DNA of 63,858 nt, the filler included, from Hausera hauseri (taxonomy: Eukaryota): assembly GCA_046269625.1 (NCBI GenBank). It is 12 parts of 12 records of this genome, joined end to end, with 100 filler letters (N's around TTAATTAATTAA, not from the genome) between each part and the next. Parts side by side here need not be neighbours in the genome. Positions count along the whole stretch, not along the records: positions 55,144 to 59,594 come from JBJURY010575005.1; 11 more parts are not named here. One strand, written 5' to 3'. The notes beneath the pieces are model-generated. The model saw only the letters and a list, made by a program, of their open reading frames with translations. It searched no databases and was not told the origin of the DNA. This document shows positions 22,251-63,769 of this stretch, piece after piece. The position numbers and the translations under genes were made by a program. The stretch's first letter is position 1, and each line of letters opens with the position of its first letter.

Positions 22251-22265
22251 TTGATTGATAGACAG

Positions 22266-23880: not shown

Positions 23881-23928
23881 ATTATTGATTAATATCTATC
23901 CATAGTGCAAATTGTTTTTTTTTTCAAC

Positions 23929-24445: not shown

Positions 24446-24612
24446 AGCAAAACGAAGAAAATGGCATAAGTATGTGACAACTTCATGTAATTGATGCATT
24501 AAAACAAATGCACATTTATATATTGGCTATACAATTTTCGTTGCCGAATTTACCCCACCATTAAAATTATTTCATTACATGTATTTTACTATATCAAAAT
24601 TATTTTTCATAT

Positions 24613-39109: not shown

Positions 39110-40700
39110 ATGTATTAAAACAAAACAAAGAGCGACGAGGTTGGATGAACTAACGAAGGAGCTCGAAGTCTATATAAACAAATATGCTTTTACTGAGTCA
39201 GAGATCAAGAATAAACGAGAATTCGTACAAAGATGGCAAAGAAATGTAATTATAGAATTAACAGATTACCACCAAAAAGGATTCATCGATTCTAATGAAT
39301 TAGGCAAGCTATTGAAATTGATTCAGTAAGTCTGTGGAAACGGCATAGGTTTCCGAACTACGCAGATAAAAGAAATACAACCAAGATTGAAAGAAATTAG
39401 AGAAAACGTACAGAGAACAAAGACAGTTTTGATAGACCATGGACCTCCTGAAGCCGGAAATGAACCTGAATGGGATGCATATTTCGACGCAATACTTGTC
39501 GAAAAACCCATGACTCCAGTACAATTAAACAAGATAGAAACATATTTGCAGGACAGGTGACTCAATGTGGACATGTTTCTAAATTCAGCGCTAACTGAAA
39601 AAGACTTAATTGAACTAATTAACGTACATATTACAGAAAGTAAGTTAAGACAACTTATTCCTACCTTAACTAAATTATCTAACAAAAACACGATCTATAG
39701 AACGGTGCCGAAACTTTTAATAAGGAAGTATGCTAAAATCTTGAGGGCTAAACCTAAAATGGCGATAAAAGTAATGGTATCATCCGAATGGGTGGACGAA
39801 AAAAAATGCGAATTAACTACATATTCCTATGTGAGAAATGTAAGAGAATGACTGATAAACAACGGCGGAACAAACGCGTAAAACTACAGATTTTACTTTA
39901 GAGGTAGAATACTCGACGAACTAGAACAATTAATAGATGTTGGGATCCTTCCCGACGAAATAAACCGGATAGTGGCAGTAATGGCTAATGAACAGACAAA
40001 GCAAGAAGCTACACGTAAGGCCAAAACGAAGCAATGCGTAGGAAAAATTATGGGAGTCCGAAACGCTGCAATGTATTTTGAGTACTTACAAACGGATGAG
40101 GATAAGGAACTATACGACATAAACTTAGTGCCACTGAGTGAAGTAACCACTAAGGGTCCAAGACCGAAACGGCCAGTAGGTAGGCCCAAGAAATCGCGAG
40201 AAGAAGTGGACTATAATGGAGAATTGATTGCAGAATTGAGACAGATGTCGATTCCGACTCTTAGTGCAGACAACGAAGAATTAAACAAGTTAATGAAGAA
40301 TCTAATACGGATTGTAAATTGTTCCAGTCTTCTAGGTGATGTATTAGATGGTAAAGGAAAGATAATATTCGATGCAGCCAAAATGATGCGATGTTCACGT
40401 TTCAAACTATCAAAAAGTAACCTAACCGATGAATCGGTAATCGAAAAGACTATGATATGGAACACCAGCAAGGAATTGAGAAAATTATTATTATATATAG
40501 CTATCAAAATAAATCCTAATCGAGAGAGTGAAATCAATAGAGCTGTAAGCTTAGCACGTATGGCAGCAAGACGATTGCCCTACGAAGTAAACTGGTCAAG
40601 ATTATTTGACATCGAAGAAGACAGATGAAACGGTAATAAGCTCGACGATATGTTACGTAATTTAACAACAGCGAACGTTAGATGCCGGAAGAATGAATCA
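39110..40700 (+). pseudogene. Unknown ~500-aa helical protein with AT-hook-like motif, in frame with the downstream glycoprotein
   Basis: ORFs 39141, 39567 and 39972 share one frame and are separated only by point stops. Motif KRPVGRPKK. Confidence 0.6.
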
Positions 40701-40706
40701 AATTGA

Positions 40707-43855: not shown

Positions 43856-44514
43856 ATGAAGCTGCAGAATGATGCCATTTTCCAGATTGTAGGTCCCAGT
43901 GGAAGTTGCAAAACGCACTTTGTTTGTAAACTATTGCAGAACTACCGTGACATGTTCCATTTACCGCGGTACAATTACACATACTGGCATCAGGGTGTTG
44001 GTGATGATGATGAGTCCGGTTTGACATTTCGGGAATTCTGTAAACTGAAATCGATAGCGATAATTGATGGGTTTGATGCGAACTGGTATGATCGATTACG
44101 AAACGATGATGTTATTGTCATTGACGATTTATTTTAAGAGGCAACGAAACAAACCGACTTCAACAACCTGTTCACAAAGATTGCACGGCACCGCGGTATG
44201 ACGGTTATTTTTATTACGCAAAACATGTTTCATCAGAGCGGACAGCATCGACCAAAAAATATAAACGTACACTATTTGGTGTTCTTCAAAATCCCCGTGA
44301 TCAGACTATCATTGATTATGTTGCACGACAAGAATTTCCTCACAACCGGGCCTACTTGATAGATGCATATCATGATGCTACGACAGAGCCACACGGATAC
44401 TTGTTCATCGACTTTATACAACAGTGGCCCGATGACATGCGTGTACGAACAAACATTTTCAATCAAAAAGGTGTATGTGTCTATAAACAAATTCAAAAAT
44501 CGACGACACGATAG
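43856..44514 (+). pseudogene. A32/FtsK-like packaging ATPase
   Basis: IVGPSGSCKT (Walker A), IVIDDL, RH.GMTVIFITQN, HGYLFIDF. Confidence 0.9.
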
Positions 44515-44730
44515 TGATAATACGAAGAATTTCCGAAAAACCATTGTTAAACGTAAACCTACCAAGCGGGTGCCCGGCAAGAAACGTGTATCAAAGCGAA
44601 CCACCGCTACAGTCAAGCGATTAAACAATTCTGTGCTTCGAACAACAGCAGCAGCAGCTAGACGCAAATTATCGTCACAGTGGCAACGGTTATAAACAAC
44701 TACGTCTCATCAACATCAATACGTCAAAAA

Positions 44731-45054
44731 ATGCGATTCAAACGTAGTCAACCGTACTTTATTGCTTTGCTCAAGGCACCTACGAGACATAAGCGAAACA
44801 TGCTGCGATCATTCTCACAGTTTGTAGTGGACAATTTGATGGAAATTTTATAAAATATTGTTGTGGGTCACGTTGACATTGGTAGTAGAAAGCGCAGTAT
44901 ACTAAAGTATCGAAAACGACTCATCGGCCTTGCCAACGCCAGTACTAAATGACTGAAACGAGAGGTTATGTACCAGCAAGATGGCGGATTCCTTGGTTCA
45001 ATTCTACCGGTTGTCACGTCATAACTGGGTTGATTCATTGCTGGAACAGTTTAG
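44731..45054 (+). pseudogene. Conserved small Polinton protein with QxGGFL motif
   Basis: MRFKRSQPYFIALLKA...EIL.NIV.G...QQDGGFLGSILPVV. Partial copy at 19139-19320. Confidence 0.6.
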
Positions 45055-45165
45055 TATAAACAATGAAGGTAAGTATATAATGATTCGGCAATATGGGTGC
45101 ATGTTTTTCATCTTTCTGTCCCAGTTTACCGAACCTTTCGTTTACGTTTCGTTCTGATTGTTGTA

Positions 45166-46257
45166 ATGCAAGCAGAAAAACCGACACCATCGACGGAAAC
45201 AACGATAAACGATGTGTAGTTCAACCCACGTGATCCTGTCGGCTATACTGGCGTCGACAAACTGCCAAAGATTGTCAAACAGACTCGGCAACACACCAAA
45301 CGTTGGCTTAGGAAACAGTTAGCATACAGCCTAAACAAACCGATAAGAAGGTGGTTTTCAACTCGTGCATACCGTGCTGCCGGTGTAACTAATGTATGGC
45401 AAATGGATCTGATGGAAATGATTCCGTACGCCAGCATTAATGATGGGTATCGATACGTGCTGATATGTGTTAATGTGTTTAGTCGTTTTGCACGTGCAAT
45501 TGCCGTAAAATCTAAATCCTGTAAAGAGATTGCCGACGCTGTTCAAACACTGATACATCAACAATAACAACAACAACCGAAGCATTTACAAACGGATTTG
45601 GGTAAGGAATTCTACAACCCCCACGTTGCAGCGGTCTTGAAACGGTTCGGCGTAAACCAATACTCAGTGTTTTCCCAATACAAGGCTGCACTCACTGAAC
45701 GATTTAATCAAACATTCCGCGGTCGCTTAAACAAATTCTTTACGAAGCAAGGCAACAAGCGCTGGATAGATGTACTGCTGGATATTATTCATGCATACAA
45801 TCATTCGACACGCCGTAATATTAATGGATTACGGCCGGTTGACGTAATCGATGATTTGGACATGTGGCTTTATCAAAACAACCGAACAACACAACGAGGA
45901 CGACAGGCAATTAAACGTCGCCCAAAATATAAAGTCGGTGATTATGTACGTATTTCAAAGCTTAATACGACGCCATTCATAAAGAATTTTAGTCAGAACT
46001 GGAGCGATGAGGCTTTCCGAATTTCAGCAATCAACACAAAGCAAAGTCCGGTTATGTACGTTTTAGAAGATGAGAATGGTGACGAAATACATGGCAAATT
46101 TTACGAACAGGAACTGCAAGTACTATTGGAAAAACCTAACGTGTATCCTATTCAGAAAATTCTACGTTCACGTGGCAAAGGTTAAAATAAACAATATCTC
46201 GTCAAGTGGCACGGATACACTACACCGAGTTGGATATTTACATCGCAGATTGAGTGA
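45166..46257 (+). pseudogene. Retroviral-type (rve) integrase with chromodomain-like tail
   Basis: DDE motifs WQMDL, LQTDLGKEF and TERFNQT, plus QYLVKWHGY. Three premature stops. Confidence 0.92.
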
Positions 46258-47205
46258 TGATTATTTATTTGGTACTTGATAGTAACAGATCATTATCACA
46301 ACATGACGACGACGACGCCGACGACGATACCGCTAAACAGTTTACCGTGCACTTAAACCAACCGGTCGATTTACGCTACGGAGCCTGGGAAGTGGCTTTA
46401 ACGGAATTCATGTTTACATTTTCACTAATGACAATAAGTCAGAACAGCGGTATTTACTTTACTCGACAAGAAACTTACCCTATTTTAAGTCGTTTGCGGA
46501 CGATCCGACACAATAACCGATATTTTCTTCGCAATTATTCTCGAGAAAATTTTTCGGTTTATGCTTATTTTTCAAACTACCGTATGAAACTAAAGCATCG
46601 AAATCCCATGGAAATGCAGTTTAAATCTATAGCTGATGCTCAGGCATGGGGTTTTCAAGCAGTCAATGTAAACTCAAAACGTCTACGGCGAGGTGGACAT
46701 GTTATAATTGGTAAAAAATTGGACTTTTCATTTGATGCAGAATCTGATATTATAGTAAAGTGGACTAAGTCAGAAGCAGTCTTACTCTATTATACTATAC
46801 CACATAATTTAATAATGGAAACGGAACTGGAATTGTGTGAATACATCAAGAAATCGGCTGCATTAGCCGTAAAGACACGTGAAATAAACGCATATAATCG
46901 TATTTCGATTACACTACATGACAGTGTTACATTTTTTGCCTTTGATGAATTATTGGTTCGAAATCTGGGTTTTCCCCAACGTGAATACAATCAAAGCATT
47001 GTTGGACAATCTATTGTTGCCAAATACAAACCACAACTTTATGGAGCATTTCACTAAATCAACATTGTAACGGACTTAACCGAATCCGTACTCCTTGGTG
47101 GAGAACGTAAACAACTGCTGGCTTCTAACGAACTGGATTCTGACACGTACAAAACATCATCATCGGGTGAAACTGTTCGCGTTATTATGTTCAGACCTAT
47201 GTACT
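46254..47205 (+). pseudogene. Minor capsid/penton protein 1
   Basis: YLVLDSN.S...TAKQFTVHLNQPVDL..GAWEVALTEF and INIVTDLTESVLLGG..KQLL. Confidence 0.8.
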
Positions 47206-47541
47206 NNNNNNNNNNNNNNNNNNNNNNNNNNNNNNNNNNNNNNNNNNNNTTAATTAATTAANNNNNNNNNNNNNNNNNNNNNNNNNNNNNNNNNNNNNNN
47301 NNNNNACCGGTCTCAAAATGTCTAATGTACGCAATGATGATTTAAAGTGTCGACTAAACATTGAGTTGCAAGGACACAAGGAAAAAGCCGGTATCAAAAT
47401 CCCGATTTGGCATGTAGCTGAAGCACATTTTAATTATCAATAAATTTTGTTGTTGTTTTGTTTTACCGTTTTTCTTTCATCAACCCAATTAACGATTAAA
47501 TATATACGTGTAATTTTAATATTGGTATAAGAATAATGATA

Positions 47542-48003
47542 ATGAATGATGTAAATATTACCTTAACAGACGAAAGTGCCTTTGTACCGAGACGTGTTAC
47601 AGCAAACAGTGCAAGCTACAATGTGTTTTCAAATGTCAATACGACAATTTCGAACAGCACAATCACATGCATAACAACTGGGATTTGATTGGCGATTCCA
47701 CCCGGTTACTACGGCCAACTTTTATCGAAAATCGGACTGGAAAAGCTCGGACTGACGGTTGTGGGCGGCGTCATTGATTCGGATGTTCGTGGTGAAATTA
47801 AAGTGTTGGTGAAAAAGCAATCCGGCGAACCGTATGCTTTTACGAAAGGCAGTGCAATCGCATAAATCGTTTTTCTTCGCTTTGATGAGGCGGAATTCAG
47901 TGTAATGTCACCGGAACAGTGGGTACTGTTTTGTGTCAATGAAACGCTGAATGAACGCAAAGAACGCGGTTTCGGTGATTTAGACAAAACTACTTTTGTT
48001 TAA
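47542..48003 (+). pseudogene. dut: Trimeric dUTPase (missed by the ORF track; two stops)
   Basis: P.R.TANSASYNV...TTGI*LAIPPGYYGQL...VGGVIDSDVRGEIKV...IA*IV...RKERGFG, covering dUTPase motifs I-V. Confidence 0.9.
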
Positions 48004-48089
48004 TGATTTGTGATGATAATAGCAATAGTTGTTTTGTTTGTGTTATAGAAAGAAAATGATTCTGTACATGATAAGTAATAGCGGCAAGA

Positions 48090-48564
48090 TTTATAGATAT
48101 TGAAACTTTCAAAGATGATAATGCCTAGTACCTGATAAAGGAATTATGCATTATGGGCGTCGGTAACAATTTCAAACCGCTTGTGTACGTATTAAAACCC
48201 GGTGTTGTGTAGAATAACCTGACAGAAAAAGCGAAAATTACCAATGGATCTCATACGACGTCGTCATGGACTTTATTGGCACGAAGGCAATTCAACGTTT
48301 TGTGTATCATGTACCATGCGAGACATTTGTGATCGTTTTGACATTGAAAATACAATATTTTACATTAAAGATCTAATTGGCGGACAAAAGTTTACGCAAC
48401 TCCATTCACAGTTTCCCGAGTTGCGAATGACGACGTATTCAACATCGAACAGCTCGCTGGCGATGGTACCTAATAATACTGTATGTCCGTATCGTGATCA
48501 TGGACCGCATTGTGCTTACAAAAAATGTCAACGGCTTTGTATTGACTATATTTCATGCAAATAA
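48090..48564 (+). pseudogene. Polinton-associated DEDD-exonuclease-like protein
   Basis: IDIETF...IKEL.I...YVLKP....L....K.TN...RHGLYWHEG...CPYRDH..HCA. Frameshifted. Confidence 0.5.
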
Positions 48565-48701
48565 ATGTATTTCTGTTTCTTTTTTCTTTCCGTAAATATG
48601 GTCCGTCGTATTGGTCAGTTGAATAATTCAAAAACTATAAATACGAGTAGGTTATAGTAGTAATAATAATCATCACGGAAATAGTTAATCAACTGAAGCA
48701 A

Positions 48702-49142
48702 TTGCAAAATATTGACGGATTGTCAATTTCAGACTCGGTGCAATGGTGGCAAGTACTTGATAGTGAGCTGGTTGCAAGAGCAGCAGGTGAATTTGGATTT
48801 AAAGATTTAGAGTCAATAGCATTGATGACAGCAACAGATTGCAGCTCTATAGAAAATCTAATTATGTTAAATCAAATGTACATTCACCGATTGTACGATA
48901 CAAATTATTTTAATACTGTTGAAAAGGTACGCGGTGAATTAGCGAATTTGAAAGAGAAAATAATGGACAAAGTACGAAACTTACAGTTTATGTATGTACT
49001 ATGTAAACAAAGAAAAGTGGATACGGTATTCTTAATGTGCGGCCATCTTGTAGTTTGTCAAATGTGTTCCACCAAAGTAATACACCAATGTCCAGAATGT
49101 AAATGTGCTATAATAAAAATTGTAGACATTTATTACGAATGA
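48702..49142 (+). CDS. IAP/Mdm2-type C-terminal RING protein
   Basis: VLC.....TVF.MCGHLVVC.MC......CPEC...I......Y. The first Cys is replaced by Tyr. No BIR domain was seen. Confidence 0.7.
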   Translation: MQNIDGLSISDSVQWWQVLDSELVARAAGEFGFKDLESIALMTATDCSSIENLIMLNQMYIHRLYDTNYFNTVEKVRGELANLKEKIMDKVRNLQFMYVLCKQRKVDTVFLMCGHLVVCQMCSTKVIHQCPECKCAIIKIVDIYYE

Positions 49143-49274
49143 CTTCAATAACGGAACATGGGCTTAAATGACGTGGAGGTAATTTGTATCATTGCGATGA
49201 GATAATACTCAAAGTAAATGTCTATTGTTTGCAATGAAAACACACCAGTATGAACAAATTTGATATAAATATGG

Positions 49275-49773
49275 ATGCAATTTCATTTCACGTTTCTCTT
49301 ATTTAAAAAAAGGCTTTGGAAAACAATTCAGCAGGTGACATTGTCTCAAAAAAGCCAAGGTACAGCGAATATTCTCAGAAATTCCCGGTTGTATAATGGA
49401 TACAACTTACATTATCTGCGCAACGCTATTCAATTGCCACTGATGCAAACTGTCAAAATCAAACTGGTTAAATATGGTCTATTGGTGAAAAAGATCAGCG
49501 ACGATGATTTGGATACGATGGAAGACACAATTAGAAAAGTTGACAGTGATTTGGCGTTGAGTAACAATATCCGAGATATATCGTCGATTTTTCTCAAAGG
49601 AAATATGGTGAAAATTGTCAGTTCACATGGTGGAGAAATCGCAGCAGCAACAATAAAAACAGTTTTGCCACGGAAGGATCTAAAAGTCTTCTAACACTGA
49701 AGTTGGAAGGATACAAGGGTTTGCACAACGTTAAATTACCAATATTGAAGCTGGGAAAGATTACGTTGATTTG
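49275..49773 (+). pseudogene. Unknown Polinton accessory protein
   Basis: 139-aa ORF with a probable frameshifted tail and a downstream AATAAA, converging on polB. Confidence 0.35.
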
Positions 49774-49974
49774 ACTTACTTTGTTTTTGATTTTAGCTTA
49801 TGATGATGAATAAATTTTATTGGTTTTGTTTGTTTGTTTTTTATATTGTTTCTCGTCACATTAAGTTAAACATAAAAGTACATTAAGTGATAATAAAATA
49901 ATAAAACAAAAGGCAAAACAGTGCACAATATACATTACTTATAAAACACAGCTAACAACAAAATGCCATAGTCA

Positions 49975-52900
49975 ATTGATCTCTCTGCACCGATTTAATC
50001 TGTGTGTGCGTGTTGTATTCCAAACGCCAATGTCAGTACGCCCAATTCTTATTCCGCCCCACCCACTTTCGCTTGTCACCGTTGCATGACAAAGCAACCT
50101 TTTTCTTTTGTGGTGTACAGCTGGTGCTTAATCTATCGTACGGTCGTTTGAGACACAACAGCCTTTTCTTCTTCTTCTTCTTGTCCATGATAGACGCGGC
50201 GATAATCACGGTGATTTATTTCCGTCTTCTTCAGCTGGATACCTTTTGCCCGCATTTTTGGCCCACAGTCCATCAGAAGACTCTAGCACTTTGGGCGCAA
50301 AAATATCCATTCCCTGTATTGAACCTAGCCTTCACTTTCGTCCTTAAAGCAGCCGATTTTGTTTGTTATCGGGCTGCTGTACAGAGGATGGTTCTGCAGG
50401 TAGTTGGACGTGTCCAGTAGACCATCTGACATTATTTGTCGGAACACCTAGTCATGATTTATGTTATTCAGCTCAAGGAAAAGCTGTCTGTGTCACCGGC
50501 AATGATACTAATCTCATAGCCGTCGAACATTTGCCGGTAACGTGCCAAATCGCGATACTGGAGCTCGTACATTCGCAACTTGCTCAAATCCAATACCACT
50601 TGTCCGATATAGCTTTGTCGATCCAGTACGACATCTTCTCTGTTTAGAAACACGGCGACCAATCCATCGGCAATGTGCATTGATCGCCTGAACTGGGCCT
50701 TGCTGGTGTATGTAACCAGTCGTTTTTTGTTATTGCACAGGCGCATATTGAGCCGCTTCTTCAAATTCTCCACAATTTTTCCGTACAGTGAATGAGCTTG
50801 TAATAGTCCTTTTCGAACTTTGTACAAGCTGCGGCTCGTTTTTCTGAATTTCCGTCAATGTATGCCTTGAATATCAGCGGCTGATTGAATTGGTTTGCGC
50901 GATATATCTGTGTTACATGTACACCGAGCTGCATGTAGAACTGTTGCATACGCCAATGGACCACGTAATTCAGCTTCGGTTCATGCGTCATGAGCAGTTT
51001 CTTTACGTTTGAGCCTGGTGGACACTGAATAAATGGTGCGACCGGTAAATCATTCAAAACATCATGCAAATCATCTGGTACCTAGAGATCGATCTCCATC
51101 AGGTATTGAACTGAGCCTGCCATGTCTTCTCGTGGTAGGTTGACCATTATGTCATCCAGATCTTGTCTGTCGACTACCCATTCGAATGAACCGTATGGCA
51201 AGGGTTGCAAAAGCGCCCAGCAGTACAGGTTATTAATATCTCTATACAGCAGTGATGTGGTATCGGCGGTAGCACTGACCTGATGCTTGTTGACAAAAGT
51301 TATGCCACCGTGAATATTAACATCAAACAGCCAGTACATTTTCGGGTCTTGCAGCAGCTCAATATCTCGATTCAGTGACACTAGAGCTGACGCCCCATTT
51401 TTTCCCGGTATAGAATAAAAGTTGAGTGGCTCCAACCTATCTTCAGCCAACGCTTTTGCTCGAAACGCCTGGAACACATCGGCTAACAGGTACACGTCCA
51501 GTTTAAAATACTAGAGAATGTAATCCAACATGTTTCTACGGCCGAGTTCTGTCCAACACCTCTGTGTTTCCCGGTATTCATCCTTTGTGATACCTGTCCA
51601 TCGCGGCGGTAATTCCTCTGCTGTCCGGAGTCGCTCATATGAGGTTGCAAAGTCATATAGAAATATGCCTTTGCTGCGTGCACTATGTGTGGGGAATTGT
51701 GTTTAGGTTATTGGCACATCCGGCAAGGCATTTACCAGCTTCGCCAGTGATTCATTGAGAAATTCCAATGAATCAAGGAAGCGTACCTGGAACCGGTTTA
51801 TAGGTGCTGACAGGGACAGGTACTTCTCTATTATTGTTGGGATTATGGACAGGTCCCAGTGTGGAAATCCGTTGATGGCCCATTTGAGTATATGATGACA
51901 ATCATAACCTCGGAAATTATGAAAGATCACCGGTAGGAATGGCCGCACACGCCTTGCCAAATTGCATGAATTGCATGCCGCTGCTAGGAATCGACCGGTA
52001 AAATGATCATTATCCGGTACGAGCCATTCCTGTGCGTCAAACGGTAATATTTTGTGGCACAGGTAACATTCTTCTGTGACTGCAAACGTCAGGCGTTCGT
52101 ATTCGTATGTCCAAATCAGGAGTTTTGTGCTGTTATTGCGATACCACTGTGCGATTTCCGATTCAACTATTGCTTCCAAATGATTCAGGAAATCACGTAC
52201 AGAGTCCCAGCCATGAAACATGTAACATTGCGGTTGACATGCAGCTTTTATTGGAACAATAACATTTCAATGGCGATTGGAACATGTTTTTGATCGTATA
52301 CATTGTGCCGCAGTAGGATTCCCTCAATATCAGCATATACCACATATGCTGGACTGTCCGTTTTAGATTAGTCACTAAATTGCAGCTCCTTTTTGATTGA
52401 CATGTCGTACATAGTTGTTCCTGATATAATTTGTCTGCACAGCGTCACATGTTTTTTCCAAGTGGTTTCTGATTTGAAGCCATGCAGACATACAGGACAC
52501 CATTTACAACGTATACGCTTTTCGATGAACTGATGGTGGTCCATGTTCAACAGTCGGTCCAAATTTGTTACGGCCACGTAATGAAATTTTTCTGCCTGAT
52601 CCAACAATAACAAATTTACTGTGCGTCCATTCGGGTTCCGACTTCGATAGATTATATCCACATGTGGATTCTTGTAAATTTCTTTGTCTGCCGGTATTTC
52701 AACTATTGCATTGTACCGGAACACGTTGATTGACAGCGTTGGATTACGCCGTTCAAATGTTGGAATGGTTTTTCGTTTCATCGGCATCCAGTTTTTGTCG
52801 AATTTCAATTCGGAGAAATACTGCCGATACTGACTTGGACAACATGTCTGTCCACTTCGTCATATTTTAATACCGCCAGAATACTGTAAATAAAACAGTA

Positions 52901-53920
52901 ATTATCGTCCGTGTTTTACATTCATTACCGCATATGAGTGCTTTAGAGCTTCAGGTGTTGATATGAATGAACGTCCGGACAGTTAAATTATGTCAATCGA
53001 CTATGTTATAATAAAACCGAGAGTGACGATTTTTATTATTCGCCAACCACTGCCCTTTTCGGTGTAGTTGGCAATTTTTAGGTCCAGCTTTTCGCCTATA
53101 TCGGCAATGAAATCTTTGGAATATGGAACTGCTCGATGTGACAGGTACCATTGTTTCCTGTCACTCTGCAGATTATCAAAATCTGCAAGTGCATAATATT
53201 GAACTTTGCAGTTGTGGTTTTTGAATTTCTCCACTTTGGTTTCTAACCGATTACGCACATGAGCGGGCACATGCCTTAGTTGAGTTGCTGATCTCGCCGA
53301 GATGTTTACTTTTATGTCCACGTAAGATCTGTTTACATCGTACTTGACAGTAATGGGTGGTTCCTGCTGCTGCTCCGTATTGCTGCTTTGCAGGTATTCG
53401 TCAAGATTTGTTGATGCTTGACGTTTTTTGCTTGTTGAGGGAATACTGCTATTTTCTGCCGCCATTAATATTTTCTTTTTCGACCTCTGAAACTGGTTCA
53501 AGTGGTCCCAGTGCTCATTATAAAACTGTTCATAGTTGATTTCACCAACTATAGAACAACAATCGGGACAAACGTAGGCCCGTTTACAGTGCATCGTTGT
53601 GGCGCCATAGCATTGCTCCATTGCACTATGGCAACCATCCACGTCGTTCACTGTACTTGTACAGTACCGTGAGTACATGGGCAATGCACTACCATCATCT
53701 TCTTCGACCGTGTTGTAAACGGTCCGAGATGATGCTTGTGCATCTTATAAAAATCGGGGTACGGACATTTGGCTGAAATATTATTACACGTCGGACACAG
53801 ATATGAGTCCGGACCAATGCTGTAATATTTCGCCATCTGTTGATGGCACTGACCACCCCCCCCACATGTATACGAGAGACGCAATACATGGGATATTACT
53901 TGATTTCTAAATTTAAACAA
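49975..53920 (-). pseudogene. polB: Protein-primed family B DNA polymerase (second lineage), near full length, frameshifted
   Basis: KGSGW, VVYADIE, CYLC...DHFTGRFLAAACNSCNL, VIFHNFRGYDCH, RFLDSL, LDVYLLADVF, DINNLY.WAL.QPLP, KDYYKL..SLYGK, GDTDSF. Confidence 0.92.
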
Positions 53921-54346
53921 ATCAAAGTAAATGTTAACATTAAATATAATTATATAATAAATTGATATACACTAACTTATTTCTTTTACTCAGGTATAAA
54001 CATATTAACCAAATTACATATTACAACTTAAATGAAAGAGTACATTGAGAGTGAAATTCGGAAATTGACAGATGACATAATGACTGGATACGTGTTTGAC
54101 GTTCAGTATCTATGTGAGCTGACAGAAACCAGGATAATGAGCAGACGAGAGTATACTGAATTAATAGTCTAATCTCTCTTCATAAAACGTATCGAAGATG
54201 AGTGGAAACGAAAGGGGCAACAACGACGACGTATTAATTTCCTCATTGGACTTGTATTTACTGCTTTGCTTTGTATTGTAATGAAAAAGTTGATTGACCG
54301 TATTTAACCACAAATATATAATTTCGCTACGTTTTTGTTTTTATTT

Positions 54347-54365
54347 TGTGTGTGTGTGTGTGTGT
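54347..54365. repeat. (GT)n microsatellite
   Basis: GT run upstream of a TATA box. Confidence 0.9.
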
Positions 54366-54424
54366 TCAAGCTACACTGCAGTATAAATACTTATGCTTTT
54401 TCTTTCTTTCCATAAGATTATATA

Positions 54425-54883
54425 ATGACTTACTTGGCGACACAACTCATTAGCTTATACCACTTATTCGACGGTCTCCGGAACTACCTGTACAATCTCG
54501 ATCGACCTTTGGACAATGCTCGATATTTGCCTCCGGAAGAGCTACTTCTACTTGCTGAGCAGAACTGGAGGGCACGCGAACCTTACTTACGCCATATGAA
54601 GCAGGTTGTTGGTGATATGGAATTTTTATTCTGTAAGATTTTTTGCTCATATGGAAAATGGACGACGTTGGACGATAATCCTCGTCAAGTACGTCAATTT
54701 ATGACCGATTTTGTCAAAAAACGTGGTGGTAGTGGTGGTCAGACGGATTACATTCCTACGTGGCAGTCAGCAGATGAAATTTGCTTCAAGCAATATTGCA
54801 ATATGACTAATTCCGATGGTCTCGATCATTCTTCTTCTTCTTCGGAATTGACTAATCCCTGTGGTTTGTGTAATCCGAATTAA
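54425..54883 (+). CDS. Hypothetical protein, divergent from polB
   Basis: Intact 152-aa ORF, TATAAA at about 54382 and AATAAA at about 54915. Confidence 0.6.
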   Translation: MTYLATQLISLYHLFDGLRNYLYNLDRPLDNARYLPPEELLLLAEQNWRAREPYLRHMKQVVGDMEFLFCKIFCSYGKWTTLDDNPRQVRQFMTDFVKKRGGSGGQTDYIPTWQSADEICFKQYCNMTNSDGLDHSSSSSELTNPCGLCNPN

Positions 54884-55143
54884 CTCGTACGATTTAGTAG
54901 CAGTAGCAGTAAAGAATAAAAGTTTGACGTAAACTTTGTTTTCTCGTTACTCAAACGACCATTATAGCGAGGTAGGTGCGAAAAGGTATTGTCCAAAACT
55001 AGGTCAAACAAAAAATGTTTGTTATAGTCAGATAGGTGGGGAANNNNNNNNNNNNNNNNNNNNNNNNNNNNNNNNNNNNNNNNNNNNTTAATTAATTAAN
55101 NNNNNNNNNNNNNNNNNNNNNNNNNNNNNNNNNNNNNNNNNNN

Positions 55144-55473
55144 AAGAAGACGGCACATGTTGCAACGCTTAAACCCAAACTGAAAACTGGACTAAGTCAA
55201 ATGTACATTTATGTGAACGTCACAGAACATATTTTTGTGGGTGGAGTACGTGTACCGCTACTCCGTGAAATTTACCCGGCAAGCAGCATGTATACTGCTG
55301 GCGATAATGTCACTGTCAAGCTCGATAATCCAATGTACCTACCTATTGCATCTACATCTATAAACAATGTTAAAGTGAATATCCCATGTGACGCGGGCTA
55401 CTTTATTGAATTTCCATACGGTACCACAAACAGTCTAACTCTTCATTTCCGTGGAAACCAACAATATGATTGA
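55144..55473 (+). pseudogene. Minor capsid/penton protein 2, C-terminus
   Basis: MYIYVNVTEHIFVGGVRVPLLREIYP...NPMYLPI...SLTLHFR. Confidence 0.85.
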
Positions 55474-55828
55474 TTCTTAAATCGTTTCCATTTACAGTAA
55501 ATCTCAGTAGGGCGGTGACCTGCCGTAATTCGTTGGTAAACAGTATGGCTCTGGATGATTGCGTACATTTGCACGCTTAGCATTTCCGGTGTTGAAGCGT
55601 ATTGGAGCCGTGGCAGCAAGAACAGCACAGGACATACTATATGAAAACAAATCGATTTTACCATCACTGAAGGAACACGCCTTGACAGAAATAAAAAGCG
55701 TTGCACCGGCAGTCGTTGAATAAATCAAAAACAATTCGCTGATAGTGGCTTGAGAAAACGTGGTAGATCAGCTGGCTTTTCAACTATAAGCAAACGTCGT
55801 CGTCGTACGATTTTCAATTTATAGACAA

Positions 55829-56550
55829 ATGGCATCTGCAAAATCTAAATTGTGCATATTTGACAAAGCCGCACCATAAATTGTTATTGACAATGCGGCA
55901 TTTGAAGAAATCCAATTCAACATTATAGCATCGGACAATAAACATCTCGATTTAAACGATACGTTTCTGTATGTAAAAGTCATTGTTAAAAAGGATGCAT
56001 CAACGGTTCTCGCTGCAACCAACATTGTCATACCGGCCAATTAACTTTTCCTCACACTGTTTCCGGAGGTTTCACTGAATCTAAACAGCGTCAAATTTGA
56101 AGGCAAGATCAGTCTATACATTATCAAAGCACTCGTTGAAACGGCTCTGAACTACAGTGCGTACACGAAGACAACTCACTTGACAAAAACCATCTGATAT
56201 GACGTCAGGCATGGGTGGCAGAATCAAAAGCTGAAATGCCTACTGTCCCGTGTTAAAGCCATGATTCGGCTCAAACGCAGCAACAATGTCTTTTGTTTAA
56301 AAACCACAGATGCACAGCTTAAACTCATACTGAAAATTACCGAGGTACGATTATACGTACGACGTGTAAAGGCAGAACCGTCTGTGCTCATGGAACATCG
56401 ATTGGGCTTGGAAACGCAAAATTCATGTTACCCGATACAACGCCCAGAACTCGTCTTTTACACCATACCGAAAGGTTCAACTACGTTTTTCAAAAATGCA
56501 CTGTTTATGACATGCGAATACCGAAATTTGTGCTCGTTACATTTCAAACA
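55829..56550 (+). pseudogene. Major capsid protein, internally deleted
   Basis: MASAKSKLCIFD...LDLNDTFLYV...IRLKRS...LYVRRVK...YPIQR...IPKFVLVTF. Confidence 0.85.
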
Positions 56551-56554
56551 ACCG

Positions 56555-56797
56555 CTCAGTCACTACGGAAAACTGCTCTTGGGTGTGAAATTTCGTGGCA
56601 TGTTTCCATTGGATCGTGTGCCGCGTGATTTGCGACAAACCGGCGGCTTTATTGTCAATACACAAACTTCGTCGTTGCCGGGCGAACATTGGATTGCTGT
56701 GTATGTCCACCATCCGACCAACGTCGTCAGAGTATTCGATCCGTTCGGATTTTACTATCCGTCATCGTTAGTTTCTAAAATTGAACGGCAATCACCA
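56555..56797 (+). pseudogene. Adenain-like maturation cysteine protease, N-terminal part
   Basis: FRGMFPLDRVP...FIVNTQTSSLPGEHWIAVY...FDPFG (catalytic His/Asp region). Confidence 0.88.
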
Positions 56798-57649
56798 TCA
56801 TAATATCGTGTTGAATATAGTCAGCATCTCCATCACTGCGGTTCCAACTACCGTCTTGTCGTTTAACACTTGCAATACTTTCTGATAAAATATATTTGTG
56901 TCAATCTGGTTATTGATGTTACTTTCGGTCAATCCTGTAATGTGCGTTTCAAAGTTGTTGATACGTTGTCTAGGCGTGACCAGTGCATAGAACAACGTGT
57001 CTCCACGTAGGTTGATTATGGCACATTCTAAAGGTGTTAATTGATTATATTGATCGATTACGGAAGCTATAATTCTGTCTTCATTTGATATCGTTGGTAA
57101 CCTTAGATATGACGTCATAGCATGTTTGGAATAATCCGGTTCTGTTAAATTGAAGGTTTTTCCTGGCGATGTTATCGCCCACGTATTTTCCGACTTGATA
57201 AGTTAAACGCCGAACATTATCCTATTTGTCAATGAACGAATTTTGAGGGAAATCTTAATGAATTGATACTCGATGGCTATCCCATGATTAAGGTCTAGAT
57301 TTATAAAATCATCCTGTTAATGGGTTTTATTATCTATCGTCTTTAGTTGGAATCGTCTAATGATAATAAAAACGTTGGTACTGTGATACTTGTCTGGAAG
57401 GCTAATCAAGTCCAGCAGAAGGAAAGACGTCGCCTTAGTCATTTGAATGAGAGCCAGTGATCGATTACTTTGGGAATATCCTTTCAAATTGTTGGGGATT
57501 TGTTGTACTATTGCATAATTGAGATTGCAAGTATTGTCGTTTATGTTTACATGACACTGGTTCGTCTGATTTGCATTTACCAAATGATTCTTAGCATTCT
57601 CTAACCAGTTCTTGGTACGTTGGATTGACTGGATTTGAGAACTTTCCAT
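56798..57649 (-). pseudogene. Retrotransposon accessory ORF with ISG20/REX4-like DEDD exonuclease fold, truncated
   Basis: ORFs 57317-57649 and 56798-57118 share a frame. IINLRGDTLFYALVTPRQRINNFETHITGLT...VLQVLNDKTVVG follows IVN..G.VLYD..V.P...I.DY.T..SGIT...V..LL.GKILVGH. Confidence 0.65.
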
Positions 57650-57654
57650 GTTTA

Positions 57655-58685
57655 CTATAAAAATAGTGGTACTTGTATATTAGGAGAACTTAACAATAAC
57701 ATAACGGTTATCAGATACTCGATTTTGGTAATCGTTATTGTTTTATGGGCATTTTTGAAAAAGGTAACTGGATAACGTTCAGTTACCTTAGACTTTCGGA
57801 TTGCCTCGATTACAATCCGACGAAGTAACCGTAAACTTGGATTTTCAGTATCCAAGATATTTGCTATACGTCGCATATCTGTTCTAACCCAGTTTGTTCT
57901 GCGACGTTTTCGTAGGTAAATAACTATTTTTACGGTAAGTATTATACCTATTACTATTATTATAAAAGTTATTGTGCATATTAATATTATCTCTAACCGT
58001 GAATGTGAGTACGTCGTACGTGGGGTCTTAAAGTTGTGATTACCACAATAGTGACATTTCTTTGGGGCACTTTTATTTTTACTTCATTTCTAGTCAGGGC
58101 CGTTAAGACCTTCGTAGATATTATCTTATTATTGTCATTATAGAGTTGCAACACTATTGTATATTTGGTATTTGGGGTCAGCGCAGCACAGGGCACAATT
58201 AAATCATCTGATGTTATAATTCCTTTAGCAACAATTGTATCTCGTATTTTACATGCAAACTTTACTTTAAAGAAGTCAAGGTCTGGTTTTACAGATACTA
58301 TCTGAGAGGTTGGGGCCGTAATAATTGTGACATTTTCCCACAGAACGTTTCTGTCGGTAATATGATGCGTATGGCTTGATTAGAACAGTGATCGCCCTTT
58401 CATTACTTTTATTAATCAGAAAGAAGTGCACAGATGATGCTGTAACATTTTTTGTTCTTCGTCGTATTCAACTCTATTTCGATACCGCATGTACATAGTT
58501 GGTCCCTTTCTTTTTAAACTATTCACAGATTTTCCATATTCTTTCCGAGAAAGCTCGTAGTTGACCATATATATATCTTACCTCTAGTTACGTTGCAGCA
58601 AACTTGTTACACATGGGTTAGCTGATATTTCTTAGTTCATCATTTGGCTCAGGACTTTCGGCATTAATATAAGAAGCACTAACAT
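57655..58685 (-). pseudogene. Type-I membrane protein in the env position, with FN3-like motif
   Basis: Reconstructed across stops and frameshifts: signal MLVLLILMPKVLS, several NxT/S sequons, LTPNTKYTIVL, TM IILICTITFIIIVIGIILTVKIVIYL, then RKRRR and a cytoplasmic tail. Confidence 0.6.
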
Positions 58686-58765
58686 GAATCAATCCCTTAA
58701 ACTAACAAACCCATGTTGATTTTTTTTTCACCGACTTTTTTCTAATACTTCTTACCATTTCTTGT

Positions 58766-59594
58766 TCATCTCCGCAGCTTGCTTTCTTTGGCTGCTGGCT
58801 TAAATATGTTAACGTGGACTTTAAAGACTACAATATTCTTCTTTAGACAAACATTAGATATGTCCACTTTTTCTACTTCATATGGTCCCTTGTATGGTCT
58901 ATCCAACTTGGATGTTTTACCTTTCTTACTTAACGGTGTGTACAACATCATCTTATCTCCTACTTTAATCATTGGTTGCTTAGTCTTCATCGATAATACT
59001 TCTTGTATTTCATTTTATAACCCTTCTGGTTGTCCTTTATTACTTTATACTCTAATTGGAGACGTTCCTGCATTAATTGTTTATATTCTTCTATTTCCAT
59101 TAAATGTGATGTGGGCCGCGCATTGAAATCCAAATCAATTTGTAGTCTGGCATCTCTTAAATACATATCAAAAGGTGTCTCTTTAGTAGCTTAATGTACG
59201 GATGTTCGATTCAAAAAGACACGCGCATTGAGGTACTCATCCAAATCGTCTTGTCTTACATTAACTACTGTTTGTAGCTTTTCTTTCAAATCTCCTATGT
59301 ATCTTTCAACCGTTCCGTTGTTCTCCGGATGTCCCGGAGTTGAACGCAACTTCAATATCCTCATAATATCGTATATTGCTTGCATTAAATTGCCAGTTAA
59401 GTTGGATGCTTGATCGGTTAATAGAATTCGAGGAGCTCCATAATTAAATATTTTTTCTACGAATTTTTCGGCTATCGTTTCAGCCTTCATACCTGGCATG
59501 GGCAATGCGACGACCTATCAAGTGCAATAATCAATAAATACCAGGATATATTCATTCCCGTTTCTTGTCATTGGTAACGGTCCAGTTATATCCA
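58766..59594 (-). pseudogene. pol: Gypsy integrase core and GPY/F module
   Basis: DITGPLPMTRNGNEYILVFIDY...GAPRILLTDQASN...HPENNGTVER...KLDRPYKGPYEV. Confidence 0.92.
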
Positions 59595-59694
59595 NNNNNN
59601 NNNNNNNNNNNNNNNNNNNNNNNNNNNNNNNNNNNNNNTTAATTAATTAANNNNNNNNNNNNNNNNNNNNNNNNNNNNNNNNNNNNNNNNNNNN

Positions 59695-62640
59695 CTTTCC
59701 AGGAACTCTTTTATACGGTCTTCTACTAATTTACTCAGTCTCGTTAATACCCGGGACCATTTGTCTAGCTGGTTAGCAATATTCGGCTTCGCCAATATTG
59801 TTTTGCCCAGCATTTTGTATGCGTCTTCTAACTCATTATCTGGACCTTTGATGAAACTAATGATCTGGTATACGTAGTTGAATTCGTCCTTATATTCATC
59901 AATTTCAAGGATACAGGCCTTAATTATGTTNNNNNNNNNNTGTGTCTCGTCGTTGTCCATTTGCATGATCCTATTTCTCAAACTATATATCTGTGACCCT
60001 TTTTCGTTTTCGATTTTAATACGACTTTGCAGGCTTGTATACTGTTTCGATGCGGTGGAGGGAATTTTTATCATCTCCATTAATGGTGTGATATCTAGCA
60101 AGCTTATACTCAGCAATTCCAGATCAATTTGTTTTCGTTCCCAGACCGGTTTTTTTAAGCCTCCTAACCATTTCGAATCTGATTTCATTCATGTCGAGCT
60201 CCAGGTTACCTGTTACCCTCTTTAGTTTTGGATTGGCTTCTAATGTACTTAATAATACTTGGGCTTTCTTAATTCTTGCTTCCACATTCTCTATATGTTT
60301 ATCCCACGCTTCGGGAAATTTTACTCCACTTTTTATCCATGTTTCTAATTTATATATCTAATTTTCTAGCGTTTCTGGAGGCACTTCCTCAGGTTGCCCT
60401 AGGTATATAGCTTCGCACAGTTTTCCTTCAATATATAATTTTATTTTCTTGTATAATCTTTCTATAAATTGCTGCTGTTTACCAGAAATGTCTGCTTGTT
60501 CGTTCATCTTTTTAAGTTTCTCTAAGTTCTGTTGCAATACGTCTGGGTTGAGGCAATTAATTCTTATTCTCTTTAATTCCTCGGCATTTTTCCACGAGCG
60601 TCTAATTTTCCTCTGTTTCTGATCGACCCTCTCACTTTGTTCTGTCTCTTTTTCACTAGTAGGTTGTAAATATATCTCATTAATTTTATTCACAGATTTT
60701 GTTAACTCTTCTATTCCAACAGGGTTAACTAACCAAATTTCAGGGGTATCCAAGGTGAACTTTACATCGCTTCCTAGAGCAATTTCGGCGTTGTTTGTCC
60801 TGTCTGACTTTCCCTTATTCATCGGGGATCGTGATCGATCTTTACGTTTCAGCTTTAATGATGGACTGCGACCCCTATTCTTTGTTATTTTGAGTATTAG
60901 TTGTTCCATAAATTCTTTTTCTTCGTCAACCTCTATAGTTTTGTCCACTTTTTCTACAACATATTCCGGTTCTGCATATAAATCTACTTTATTTGGAGTT
61001 TGGGCCTTCTCGGTTTTCTCTATTCCTTTATTAGACGCAGATACATTCTTTTTCCTTGCCATATCGGTAAACCTTAGCGGGGCTATTGAGTGTTCATATT
61101 CGGTTTCTGGCTCGCGAAGTCCATAGTATACTTCTAGTAAGCGTAATTTTTGTTCATACTCATTTCTGGCCATTAAAACTTTGGGATCGTTAGTATCAGG
61201 TCGAGCCCTCAAGAAAAGTCGCAAATCTTGAATTTCAATAATCGTACCTGTGTCCTTACGAATACCATAAATTATTTCTAGATTTTCATTCCTAATTGCA
61301 TTAGTTTTACTAGGCTGAACAATTGAAACACTTCGCGGATTTGGACAGGACCTTACTACGTGTCCTTCTTGTCCGCAGGTGTAACGAATTAGGTTACCAT
61401 TTCTACCGACCCTTTGTCCTCCATCTTCATTTCTTGGAAATTTCGATCTGCTCGGATTTCTATTAAAATTCTGGTTCTACGAAACTTGTCTAGTGTCTCC
61501 ATTCTGACGATTATCATAACTTCGATTATCGCTGTGCCGGTTTCCATTGTTAAAACTTCTAGGACCGTTTGAACGTCTATCCGTACTATAGTTTGATCTG
61601 TTAGATGCGCTATTACGGTCATTGTCAAAATTCCGATTATCATAACGATTACTTCTATAATCATTGTTATTATTCTGGTTTCTGTTTCCATAATTTCGGT
61701 TAAATCGCCTATCTTTCTTCCGTGATTATCATTCCGATTTCTATTATTTCGATCACATCGATCATTATATCGGTCGTTTTTGTCATTACTTTTAACATAT
61801 CTATCCAGTGACATTTCCAAGTCCTGGGCCAACTGCAAGGTTTTATCAAAATTCTCAGGTCTTGCTAAAATCAAATGTTTCACTATATCTCTAGACCAGA
61901 TGCCATTTGTTAACTGCGTCATCATCATAACGTCCTAATCTGGAGAGCTTAACTTCTGTGCAGCTTTGCGCTTTGCGTCACTTTAGCCTTAGCTATATTG
62001 GCTATTCTTAAAGTACTTGCATATCTGTTCGCAAGTTTCTTCAATGCAAATGCAAACTGGGTTATCTACTCACCCTTTTGTTGCACCCTATTCCAGAAGA
62101 CCATGAGCTTTTGTTGTGGAGTAACTGTCGGCGATAATTTTCGGTTTAAGGCTCTTACAAGGGAGTACCACGTTTTCTTTTCATCGTCAGTGAGATAACT
62201 ATAGGTATCAGCGGCCAAATGCTTCAAATGTAGTGACAAGCGTTTAATCATTACGTTAGATGCGAGTCCAGCACCTTCTGCGTGCAACTTATAAGTTCTT
62301 AAGAATTCATTAAATTCGTCAGAGTCTCCGTCGTACGCCGACAGATTCAGAGAGTCTAATGTAAAAATGTCCAGCTTCTGCGCTACTGCTTGATTTTCGA
62401 CCATGTTTTCAACGTTTATTAAATTTTGTTTATTTAATGTACGGATTGTAATTCTCTTATCAGGAAATTTAAACTCTATAGGCTGTACAGCAGCGTTTAA
62501 ATCAGTAAGTTCAATGTTAACTAAATTCGTCTCGGATAAGGTTCGTCTATTCAACGTTTTATACTGCCTATAAACTTTGTTGCGCGTTTCTCGTAGGTTA
62601 ATATTTTCTTTACCGTTTCGAATTACGTTTAAGTTATCAT
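59695..62640 (-). pseudogene. gag: Gypsy gag with R/N/D-rich linker, zinc knuckle and long C-terminal extension
   Basis: AYDGDS.EFNEFL...LSLHLK..AA..Y...TW..L...L...RVQQKGE capsid motifs. YTCGQEGHVVRSC knuckle is in frame with ORF 60358-61224. Confidence 0.75.
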
Positions 62641-62825
62641 CTGACTTATGCCTATCAATATTCGTTATTATTTCTATAGTATGTCTTTAATTTTGCTGAG
62701 GGTTTTCTTACAACTGCCGAATTTTAAGTTCACAACAATTCTATAATCAATTATTTGATGTAGTGGTGCTGATCGCCAATATGTCGTTACTTTTCACTAA
62801 CAGTCAAGTTTAGCAAGTGCAAACT

Positions 62826-62843
62826 GTCCTTCTAGGGTTGCCA
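62826..62843 (-). promoter_or_regulatory. Primer-binding site
   Basis: Minus strand reads TTAACA-T-TGGCAACCCTAGAAGGAC, upstream of gag. Confidence 0.55.
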
Positions 62844-62844
62844 A

Positions 62845-63381
62845 TGTTAATAGTTGAAAGTGGGCCCTATCCAACATCCAACTATGACAATAATGAAACT
62901 AAAATTTAAATAATGTTATATGAGCAGATAAGTCCTAACCTTCTCGTTAGAATGTTTGCACTAGTTATGATGCGTGTGCTGCGTGCTGTGCCTTGCGTAA
63001 TTTAGAAAATTTCTCGACTTAACTATGAAGTTTAATACGATTTTAAGCCTTAATGTAGTACAAGTCCCTCGTAAGGAGTGAGGGAAACTATAAGAATTTT
63101 AGAAATACTTTATTAATAACACAAATAAAACAATACCAATAATCAACAGGGAATAATTTTCACAGTTCAAATTCAAGTAATATTCAAGTCCTTTTCCGTA
63201 TCAATCGATTCATAAAAACGTTGAGAATTCTATGCAGATCTACACTGTACACTGTTTCATTGCGTTTATATAGTAAATTGTATGCATAATTGGTAGTAGA
63301 GAATTTCTAATTTCTTCTAATTTTTCTCAATTTCATATTGGTTAATTTCATTAATCGCAGGCAGCATTTATTTTCTCCACA
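62845..63381 (-). mobile_element. 5' LTR (outer boundary approximate)
   Basis: Minus-strand TGTGG...TAACA with TATATAAA at about 63270, directly followed by the PBS. Confidence 0.5.
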
Positions 63382-63592
63382 TTTATTGTGCGAAGTTTTG
63401 CAGAGTTTCGGTATTTTCTCTGAATAATCCAAATAATTAATTGATTTTAATTGCACTGATGTATTGATTCTCTTTCGGTTTTCGCTTTCACTTTCACTTT
63501 CGTTTTCAATTTACTGTACACATACAATTTGTGATTCTCAGCTCTCTTTATAACATATATAAAGTGTCGAAAATATTTACTCTGTGATAAAA

Positions 63593-63769
63593 ATGATGTG
63601 CTCAATTTGCTTGGAAAATTATACCTCATTCAATGTGCGTATGGTCAATTGCGTTCATAGACATTGCTATAACTGTTTCACACAGTGGACTAACGTCAAC
63701 AGGTCGTGTCCAGTATGCAGGAGCAGCGCAACCAGTGCAGACGTTTTTATGAAGAGAAGCGTTTTATGA
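63593..63769 (+). CDS. Small stand-alone RING finger protein
   Basis: CSIC...C.H.HC..C...W....SCPVCR, with TATATAAA at about 63556. Confidence 0.7.
   Translation: MMCSICLENYTSFNVRMVNCVHRHCYNCFTQWTNVNRSCPVCRSSATSADVFMKRSVL

Follow-up and report, generated by a model that had tools for sequence, protein, structure and literature searches.

The DNA analysed here is a 63,858-nt stretch of Hausera hauseri assembly GCA_046269625.1 (hereafter, the window), in which short contigs are joined by artificial linkers (N44-12 nt-N44). Between positions 56798 and 59594 lies what is left of the 3' end of a Gypsy-type retrotransposon, decayed and truncated, whose integrase is followed by two additional genes: one for a membrane protein in the position usually taken by env (gene 1), and one combining a cupin-fold domain with an ISG20/REX4-fold pseudo-exonuclease (gene 2). 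We hold this gene layout to be highly probable. The full functional reading that we favor, to which we give a probability of about one half, is that the element would express an attachment protein and an RNA-binding pseudo-enzyme from spliced mRNAs.

Two genes behind a Gypsy integrase

Integrase, gene 1, and gene 2 all lie on the minus strand of a single contig (55144-59594). The integrase core (59191-59594) contains stops and is cut by the contig end; read with X at the stops, it matches Pfam rve at E 2.5e-7, with 31.3 bits against a curated cut-off of 32.6 and hence below it. The C-terminal part, located from the list of open reading frames (ORFs) at 58766-59014, carries a motif at 58891-58874 that we take to be GPY-type and ends at a stop at 58766-58768. 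Gene 1 (57655-58685, about 343 codons), delimited from frames, hydropathy, controls, and sister contigs, begins with an ATG at 58685, exactly 80 nt past the integrase stop, and spans 1031 nt to its stop at 57655-57657; it is disrupted by stops and frame changes near 58.57, 58.35, and 58.0 kb. Gene 2 begins with an ATG at 57649, 5 nt past the gene 1 stop. The order and spacing given in the preliminary description (integrase, then surface-protein gene, then exonuclease-like gene) are therefore upheld. In 1000 first-order resamplings of 56820-58700, used as the chance control throughout, four same-strand stop-free stretches of 120 or more codons never appeared (0/1000).

An rve domain at the end of pol with a GPY/F-type tail is the Ty3/Gypsy arrangement, and an upstream gag on the same strand is also present, though on the next contig. 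This broken gag (61339-62431, minus strand) includes a CCHC knuckle (zf-CCHC E 3.4e-4) and matched the gag of a related locus described below (L003) at E 3e-8 in a pairwise comparison; tblastn with the L003 gag on the whole window gave no match. Across the gap between the contigs, it probably belongs to the same element and represents its 5' part. Reverse transcriptase and RNase H are on neither contig, and their expected place is the assembly gap at 59595-59694. By motif reading, a candidate 5' long terminal repeat (LTR) runs on the minus strand from TGTTA at 63555 to CA at 62782 and is followed by a TGG-starting primer-site-like motif (62761-63555 in all); the window holds no second copy of it, so the LTR is unconfirmed. 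Nor does the window contain a 3' LTR, and the 3' end of the element is missing.

Sister copies indicate that the two genes belong to the element family. In one public sequencing run that contains this stretch (run X1), 920 contigs aligned to 56770-58790 and covered 30/30 bins; 42 were at least 99% identical to the window, 111 were 95-99%, 293 were 90-95%, and 474 were below 90%. The boundary between genes 1 and 2 is crossed by one diverged contig (28 differences in 208 nt), and another contig spans the beta-sandwich and transmembrane helix of gene 1. This coverage makes both genes a family trait, in agreement with the earlier view of them as accessory genes of a complex Gypsy element. Twenty contigs differ inside the second stop of gene 2, and eight differ by an insertion or deletion where gene 1 first changes frame, so at least some of the breaks are private to the window copy; among the 40 of 249 differences listed, most are likewise private to it. 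Over the gene 1 cytoplasmic tail (57790-57925), X1 contigs are many more and deeper than over the remainder of gene 1, up to 73 at one place, as if a more abundant repeat shared this sequence.

A surface-protein gene and a cupin-exonuclease gene

The clearest feature of gene 1, whose product is probably a type-I membrane protein, is its one strong transmembrane helix (Kyte-Doolittle hydropathy 3.14) with an RKRRR stop-transfer cluster (57898-57990, minus strand), a combination found in 0/1000 resampled controls. Ahead of it, at 58020-58316 on the minus strand, Atlas features and a structural model predict a seven-strand beta-sandwich that is single, membrane-proximal, and contains two cysteines. 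From the modeling, a beta-sandwich ectodomain is likely, and its identity as an FN3 domain is plausible. The language-model features of the beta-rich part lie at 0.91 to fn3 clusters, and 10/10 best matches are fn3. An L.P.T.Y motif at 58181-58149, presumably an FN3-type pattern, occurs in 6/1000 controls, the pattern having been picked after the sequence was seen. Pfam, PDB-sequence, and fold searches gave no clear support, so the proposed FN3 likeness is favored, weakly, by language-model features. At the other end, a short hydrophobic start (58662-58685, minus strand) is a weak candidate signal peptide: it has 8 hydrophobic residues, no 19-residue window exceeds 1.6, and the region is broken. 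The true start may be slightly upstream, and five sister contigs differ within the stop codon just ahead of the gene 1 start. Thus, the signal-ectodomain-transmembrane-tail layout originally proposed is clear for the helix and its basic flank and weak for the signal peptide. The tail also holds a second, marginal hydrophobic window.

Just upstream of the beta-sandwich lies an RQKR furin-type motif (58345-58356, minus strand), in another frame of this copy, and N-glycosylation sequons occur at 58449 and 58413 in the same frame as the motif. If these belong to gene 1, the protein would be processed like an envelope. It does not have the hallmarks of an F-type or gB-type fusogen. No piece of gene 1 matched a fusogen family in Pfam, in a scan that recovered another env in the window at E 5e-32; no hydrophobic window or fusion peptide occurs in the ectodomain after the furin-type motif; and the ectodomain comprises only about 230 codons. 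That gene 1 is unlike a fusogen, as first noted, is borne out by each of these results. Searches for relatives were negative as well: with residues 108-228, 0/16 protein candidates (lengths 126-403) reached E<=1; Pfam gave 0 families and no fn3 match; and 0/24 stretches of viral contigs were positive. The sole PDB-sequence match, gp160 at E 2.1, is a chance hit and was rejected.

One alternative is that gene 1 is a host-receptor mimic, acting as a decoy for a cytokine-type ligand or as a block to superinfection by related elements, with no role for capsids and the remainder of the reading unchanged. A lone membrane-proximal beta-sandwich with two cysteines does resemble receptor ectodomains, cytokine-receptor FN3 domains are among the weak fold matches (Z 4.6), and related elements carry signaling-type cargo (TRAF, RING). 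Nevertheless, we consider a mimic unlikely: gene 1 sits in the env position directly past the integrase, a furin-type motif precedes the domain as in processed surface proteins (assuming that it belongs to this reading frame), and the Atlas, PDB-sequence, and Pfam searches matched no specific host receptor.

Gene 2 (56813-57649, minus strand), as delimited by homology and models, encodes a cupin-fold domain (approximately 57604-57190) and an ISG20/REX4-fold pseudo-exonuclease (from approximately 57079), the 3' part of which is lost. It has in-frame stops at codons 111 and 149 and comprises 283 residues when read with X. A phmmer search of PDB sequences returned only two matches, ISG20L2 (E 0.0011) and ISG20 (E 0.0041). 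Protein collections contain one close relative, P0004, which is intact at 447 residues and 57% identical over 281 residues. Window and P0004 agree at 91/150 positions of the cupin domain and 56/90 of the exonuclease domain, about 61% each, and this evenness fits continued constraint on a non-catalytic protein. Both halves also occur in the distant relatives P0007, P0008, P0011, P0012, P0014, and P0015; P0010 and P0013 are repetitive chance matches and were left out of the alignment.

The P0004 model, built on an alignment of six sequences (predicted local distance difference test score, pLDDT, 59) has a DnaQ-like fold closest to ISG20/ISG20L2 and superimposes on ISG20 at Z 15.9 (root-mean-square deviation 2.8, 155 aligned), and Foldseek concurs. 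The suggestion of an ISG20/REX4-type fold is thereby upheld by both sequence and structure matches. The preliminary description was correct in placing an exonuclease pattern in the C-terminal half; it left the N-terminal half undescribed, and this half is predicted to be a cupin fold. P0004 residues 54-191 match many cupins at a moderate Z of 9-10, Foldseek again concurs, an independent Atlas model of P0007 matches cupins over residues 1-165, and the predicted fold is the double-stranded beta-helix barrel of that superfamily. Cupins have a conserved metal-binding histidine motif; across the 6 aligned family members, the domain holds no invariant histidine.

The window's branch of the family is a pseudo-nuclease, judging by its residues. 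In the columns of the catalytic D-E-D-H-D set, P0004 has 0/5. P0007, P0008, and P0011 retain D-E-D/E-H-D (with D or E at ExoII), and P0012 is degenerate. Gene 2 of the window lacks the ExoI and ExoII residues and ends before ExoIII. Its IIASVID sequence had been read as a non-canonical ExoI motif; the site is instead dead, being three residues shorter than in P0004, which also lacks D-x-E. An active exonuclease with a non-canonical site, destroying small RNAs or trimming element RNA, would be in keeping with the retained fold and with relatives that have full catalytic sets. We regard it as highly improbable because all five catalytic residues are absent from the aligned columns of intact P0004, which also has no acidic substitutes near ExoI, and the activity first proposed is not sustained. 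Intact relatives carry His at ExoIII, and their Pfam match is RNase_T rather than DNA_pol_A_exo1.

In a viral structure library, only single-domain matches were obtained (cupin/AlkB-type or exonuclease), and none listed covers both domains at a good template modeling score (TM-score). P0004 loci were found in no viral contigs and in 0/40 prokaryote genome contigs; the count for P0007 loci was 0/15, and for A3 loci in viral contigs 0/233. A tree of 11 exonuclease domains separates 8 cupin-fused from 3 stand-alone REX4-like sequences with 100/100 support. Given its long branches and midpoint root, and with P0004, P0007, P0008, and P0012 (4/8 of the cupin-fused set) having no known context, it is weak evidence for a single origin of the cupin-fused exonucleases.

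Related loci, splice acceptors, and a possible mode of action

Scanning metagenomes with the P0011 group produced 297 pattern matches and, from these, four loci (L001-L004). In each, the cupin-exonuclease gene closes a series of intact accessory ORFs. These arrays, at L001 300-6730, L004 54-4655, L003 226-2846, and L002 226-2857, comprise up to eight intact accessory ORFs encoding RING-H2, IAP-type RING, full TRAF (RING, zinc finger, and MATH), coiled-coil, and cupin-exonuclease proteins; RING and TRAF genes are carried by L001 and L004. About 180 nt past the exonuclease gene, 4/4 loci share a motif that ends in TGT, where an LTR would begin. First patterns for a polypurine tract and primer site matched nothing; the motifs were identified by visual inspection and used in a second search. 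The pre-LTR motif is identical in the four loci (L001 6881-6914, L002 3014-3047, L003 3002-3035, L004 4811-4844). A purine-rich tract is expected just before the start of an LTR; on the sense strand, the motif has a run of six C at this position. L003 continues for about 1.6 kb of LTR-like sequence to CA, a TGG primer-site-like TGGCGCCCGA motif, and gag (Retrotrans_gag E 2.8e-6), so that 3034-4950 joins the 3' end of one element to a gag on one contig; this may reflect tandem copies, a one-LTR circle, or a collapsed assembly. Together, the shared motif and the L003 continuation place the exonuclease gene inside an LTR element, ahead of the LTR, in this branch of the family.

The gene is also under constraint there. 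Among L001-L004, the ratio of nonsynonymous to synonymous substitution (dN/dS) is 0.055-0.149 in the cupin half (6/6 pairs), 0.026-0.040 in the exonuclease half (4/6 pairs, the other 2 being saturated), and 0.11-0.28 in the tail. This bears on the view that both genes are functionless passengers, host sequences captured by template switching, which would agree with the dead state of the window copy. Strong purifying selection on the gene 2 family in related loci argues against it, as do a P0004 frame that has stayed open for 447 codons at 57% identity, the separation, in the tree, of the gene 2 family from the 3 stand-alone REX4-like proteins, and sister contigs that cover both genes down to below 90% identity (474/920). 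We therefore judge the passenger explanation quite improbable.

In complex retroviruses, accessory genes are expressed via splice acceptors. Under a rule requiring a T-rich acceptor whose terminal AG lies no more than 8 nt from an ATG, 15/18 accessory starts in L001-L004 begin at a TAATTTTAG-type acceptor, compared with 6/413 other ATGs. The same rule applied to the window identifies a splice-acceptor-like signal for gene 2 (57655-57683, minus strand), consisting of a branch-point-like CTAAT, a T run, and TAG, with CTAAT 24 nt upstream of the acceptor AG. The gene 2 ATG is the sole one to pass among 60 minus-strand ATGs in 56801-59594. Because the acceptor TAG doubles as the gene 1 stop, the 5-nt spacing between the genes is explained.

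The boundary could also be read as decay, with genes 1 and 2 once a single frame for a membrane-anchored protein that ended in a pseudo-nuclease, and the stop and 5-nt gap arising later. P0004 has a hydrophobic start in frame with its cupin domain that is faintly like the last 30 residues of gene 1 (E 0.067), and the gene 1 tail has its second, marginal hydrophobic window. A fusion nonetheless seems improbable to us. A full acceptor-like signal stands exactly at the boundary (1/60 ATGs), the L001-L004 homologues are stand-alone ORFs behind acceptors, the T-rich DNA upstream of those homologues likewise translates as hydrophobic residues, and P0007, P0008, P0011, and P0012 have no hydrophobic extension.

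Several observations weigh against the reading of an attachment protein and an RNA-binding pseudo-enzyme expressed from spliced mRNAs. For gene 1, the Atlas fn3 score falls under the recognition bar (2039 versus 2300, with 150 versus 170 shared features), and the single-sequence model with its seven strands is of low confidence (pLDDT 56). In a fold search, that model matched beta-sandwiches of various kinds (best Z 7.4), and FN3 chains, at Z 4.5-4.8, ranked behind others. By sequence, no relatives of gene 1 were found outside this organism's own copies, its ATG fails the acceptor rule, and 0/4 of the related loci have a gene 1 relative beside the exonuclease gene; the pairing of gene 1 with gene 2 is thus not family-wide. 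The first 28 residues of P0004, hydrophobic-rich and faintly like the gene 1 tail, would allow a fused protein. For gene 2, both the dN/dS values and the LTR context stem from a catalytically intact lineage that is about 20-28% identical, not from that of the window. Finally, these lines of support are not independent: L001-L004 are mutually related, the acceptor rule was set after the motif had been seen, and the window itself may derive from run X1.

Our preferred reading may be set out as follows. Each accessory gene would be translated from its own spliced subgenomic mRNA. The gene 1 product would be a non-fusing attachment protein in the plasma or vesicle membrane, its beta-sandwich binding a receptor on a neighboring germline or stem cell and its basic tail recruiting Gag capsids, while fusion would be left to another protein or to vesicle uptake. 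This attachment model is proposed by analogy because of the env position and of two precedents discussed below, Sas and sORF2. The gene 2 product would descend from a captured REX4/ISG20-type RNase that is presumably still active in sister lineages, and through RNA binding it may shield or chaperone element RNA or decoy a partner of a host nuclease. Extended to its furthest, and here we are doubtful and offer it tentatively, the reading is of a Gypsy lineage that swapped its fusogenic env for a furin-processed, spliced FN3-type adhesion protein steering Gag capsids in vesicles, paired with an RNA-protecting cupin-pseudo-ISG20. This would be a third, non-fusogen route from cell to cell, within an element family expressing up to eight acceptor-driven accessory genes.

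Genomic surroundings and comparison with known systems

Gene 2 is truncated, and its 3' end and the 3' LTR are lost at a junction with a Polinton/Maverick-type fragment (55144-56819, plus strand) that has a protease-like gene at its right end (Peptidase_C5 E 0.0022) and is 78% identical to a second copy at 21584-22979. Homology to P0004 ends at 56813-56819, the stop of the gene 2 frame (56798-56800) lies within Polinton-type DNA, and intact P0004 extends about 128 residues beyond the window gene. At 56819, Polinton sister contigs diverge from the window or loose contigs end. Among the X1 contigs listed, none bridges the Gypsy/Polinton junction, which may be an assembly join. After insertion, the copy would have decayed, and a deletion or rearrangement would have joined it to the Polinton fragment, at the cost of the 3' LTR and the last part of gene 2.

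Nested, decayed Polinton/Maverick-type copies occupy 18319-27460, 43900-56819, and 63593-63769 of the window, with ATPase, integrase, capsid-like, protease, DNA polymerase B, and RING genes identified by inspection, and the Gypsy copy seems to be located within these copies or between them. Behind the gag knuckle, 59698-61476 is a long helical charged frame with no Pfam match, situated where protease and reverse transcriptase would be expected and reminiscent of the long polyproteins that Burro elements encode. At 13268-18018, a gag-pol Gypsy element that is almost intact has a long ORF that ends, past RNase H and before the contig end, in a stretch that we take to be OTU-like (GDSLFRCF...HYN). 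At 39882-42236, behind an unrecognised ORF, lies a gene for a fusion glycoprotein of chuvirus/gB type (Pfam Monjiviricetes_fusion E 5.4e-32), interrupted by one in-frame stop. A 422-codon open frame at 30674-31942, with a transmembrane helix, a basic cluster, and a 129-nt internal duplication, probably belongs to a host gene of receptor type, as one of its exons.

Additional genes past pol tend to be classed as env; gene 1 has the outline of an env and apparently no fusion machinery, which suggests that retrotransposons have a further means of acting at the cell surface. The active and dead branches of the cupin-exonuclease family form a pair for asking what a captured RNase gives an element and what outlasts catalysis. 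The related loci represent invertebrate LTR elements with long accessory-gene arrays behind splice acceptors, a complex element family that may merit its own study.

The closest precedent for gene 2 is in bdelloid rotifers. In the sections of PMC5408684 considered here, the LTR retrotransposons Juno and Vesta have an ORF3 behind pol that encodes a DEDDy-type exonuclease with intact catalytic residues; these ORF3s are separate units with spliced messages, and some families have small transmembrane ORFs there. Like Juno and Vesta as presented there, the Hausera element has a DEDD-superfamily exonuclease gene behind pol. Unlike their RNase D-like DEDDy enzymes, gene 2 is of ISG20/REX4-type DEDDh, fused to a cupin, dead, and beside a 340-codon surface protein, and its intact relatives do not carry the RNase D-type DEDDy motif. 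The best sequence and structure matches of its C-terminal domain are ISG20, ISG20L2, and REX4 (PDB 1wlj, 7yw5), from which the gene 2 lineage differs in having no catalytic residues and in its added N-terminal cupin fold. ISG20 effects, according to the passages considered of PMC9157404, go beyond direct RNA degradation.

For the arrays, the nearest counterparts are the planarian giant Gypsy elements Burro/GYPSM1, with RING, MATH/TRAF, coiled-coil, and BIR cargo, mostly within one polyprotein, and an F-type env between gag and pol (PMC6431247, in the portion considered). The RING and TRAF genes of L001 and L004 are comparable regulatory cargo, whereas the cargo here is in separate ORFs after the integrase, and that portion of the Burro description names no exonuclease or FN3 among the cargo. 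A survey of metazoan Gypsy env genes covers F-type and HSV/gB-type proteins, and the words fibronectin, exonuclease, DEDD, and accessory occur 0 times in it (PMC13524379). Compared with the env of errantiviruses, as represented in such partial accounts, gene 1 shares the ectodomain-transmembrane layout directly after pol, with a weak candidate signal peptide and putatively the furin-type motif, but is far shorter, with no fusion peptide past that motif and no fusogen-family match.

Two transmembrane proteins serve as precedents for gene 1. In the part of PMC11952523 on which we draw, sORF2 of MDG1-group Gypsy elements is an env-independent transmembrane protein with an adjacent basic region, providing for env-independent transfer. 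Gene 1 is likewise a Gypsy-encoded transmembrane protein with a basic region; sORF2, as described in that part, is about 70 residues, upstream of gag, unspliced, and fusogen-like, whereas gene 1 is about 340 residues with a predicted folded ectodomain and lies downstream of pol. Drosophila Sas is, in the excerpts used of PMC10289811, an FN3 single-pass type-I protein whose tail binds the Gag-derived dArc1 and targets vesicles. It is our working model for gene 1 by analogy, Sas being a host gene of 1693 residues in that account.

Searches of open-licence PMC and bioRxiv texts listed no report of an LTR retrotransposon with a membrane gene of FN3 type, with a cupin/ISG20-type gene, or with the two paired; supplements, subscription papers, and Repbase/Dfam may describe such ORFs. 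Accessory-gene capture by Gypsy elements is a known kind of event. The least familiar features are a surface protein of non-fusogen type where env would be expected, and a cupin-exonuclease family that has both live and dead branches and occurs in multi-acceptor arrays.

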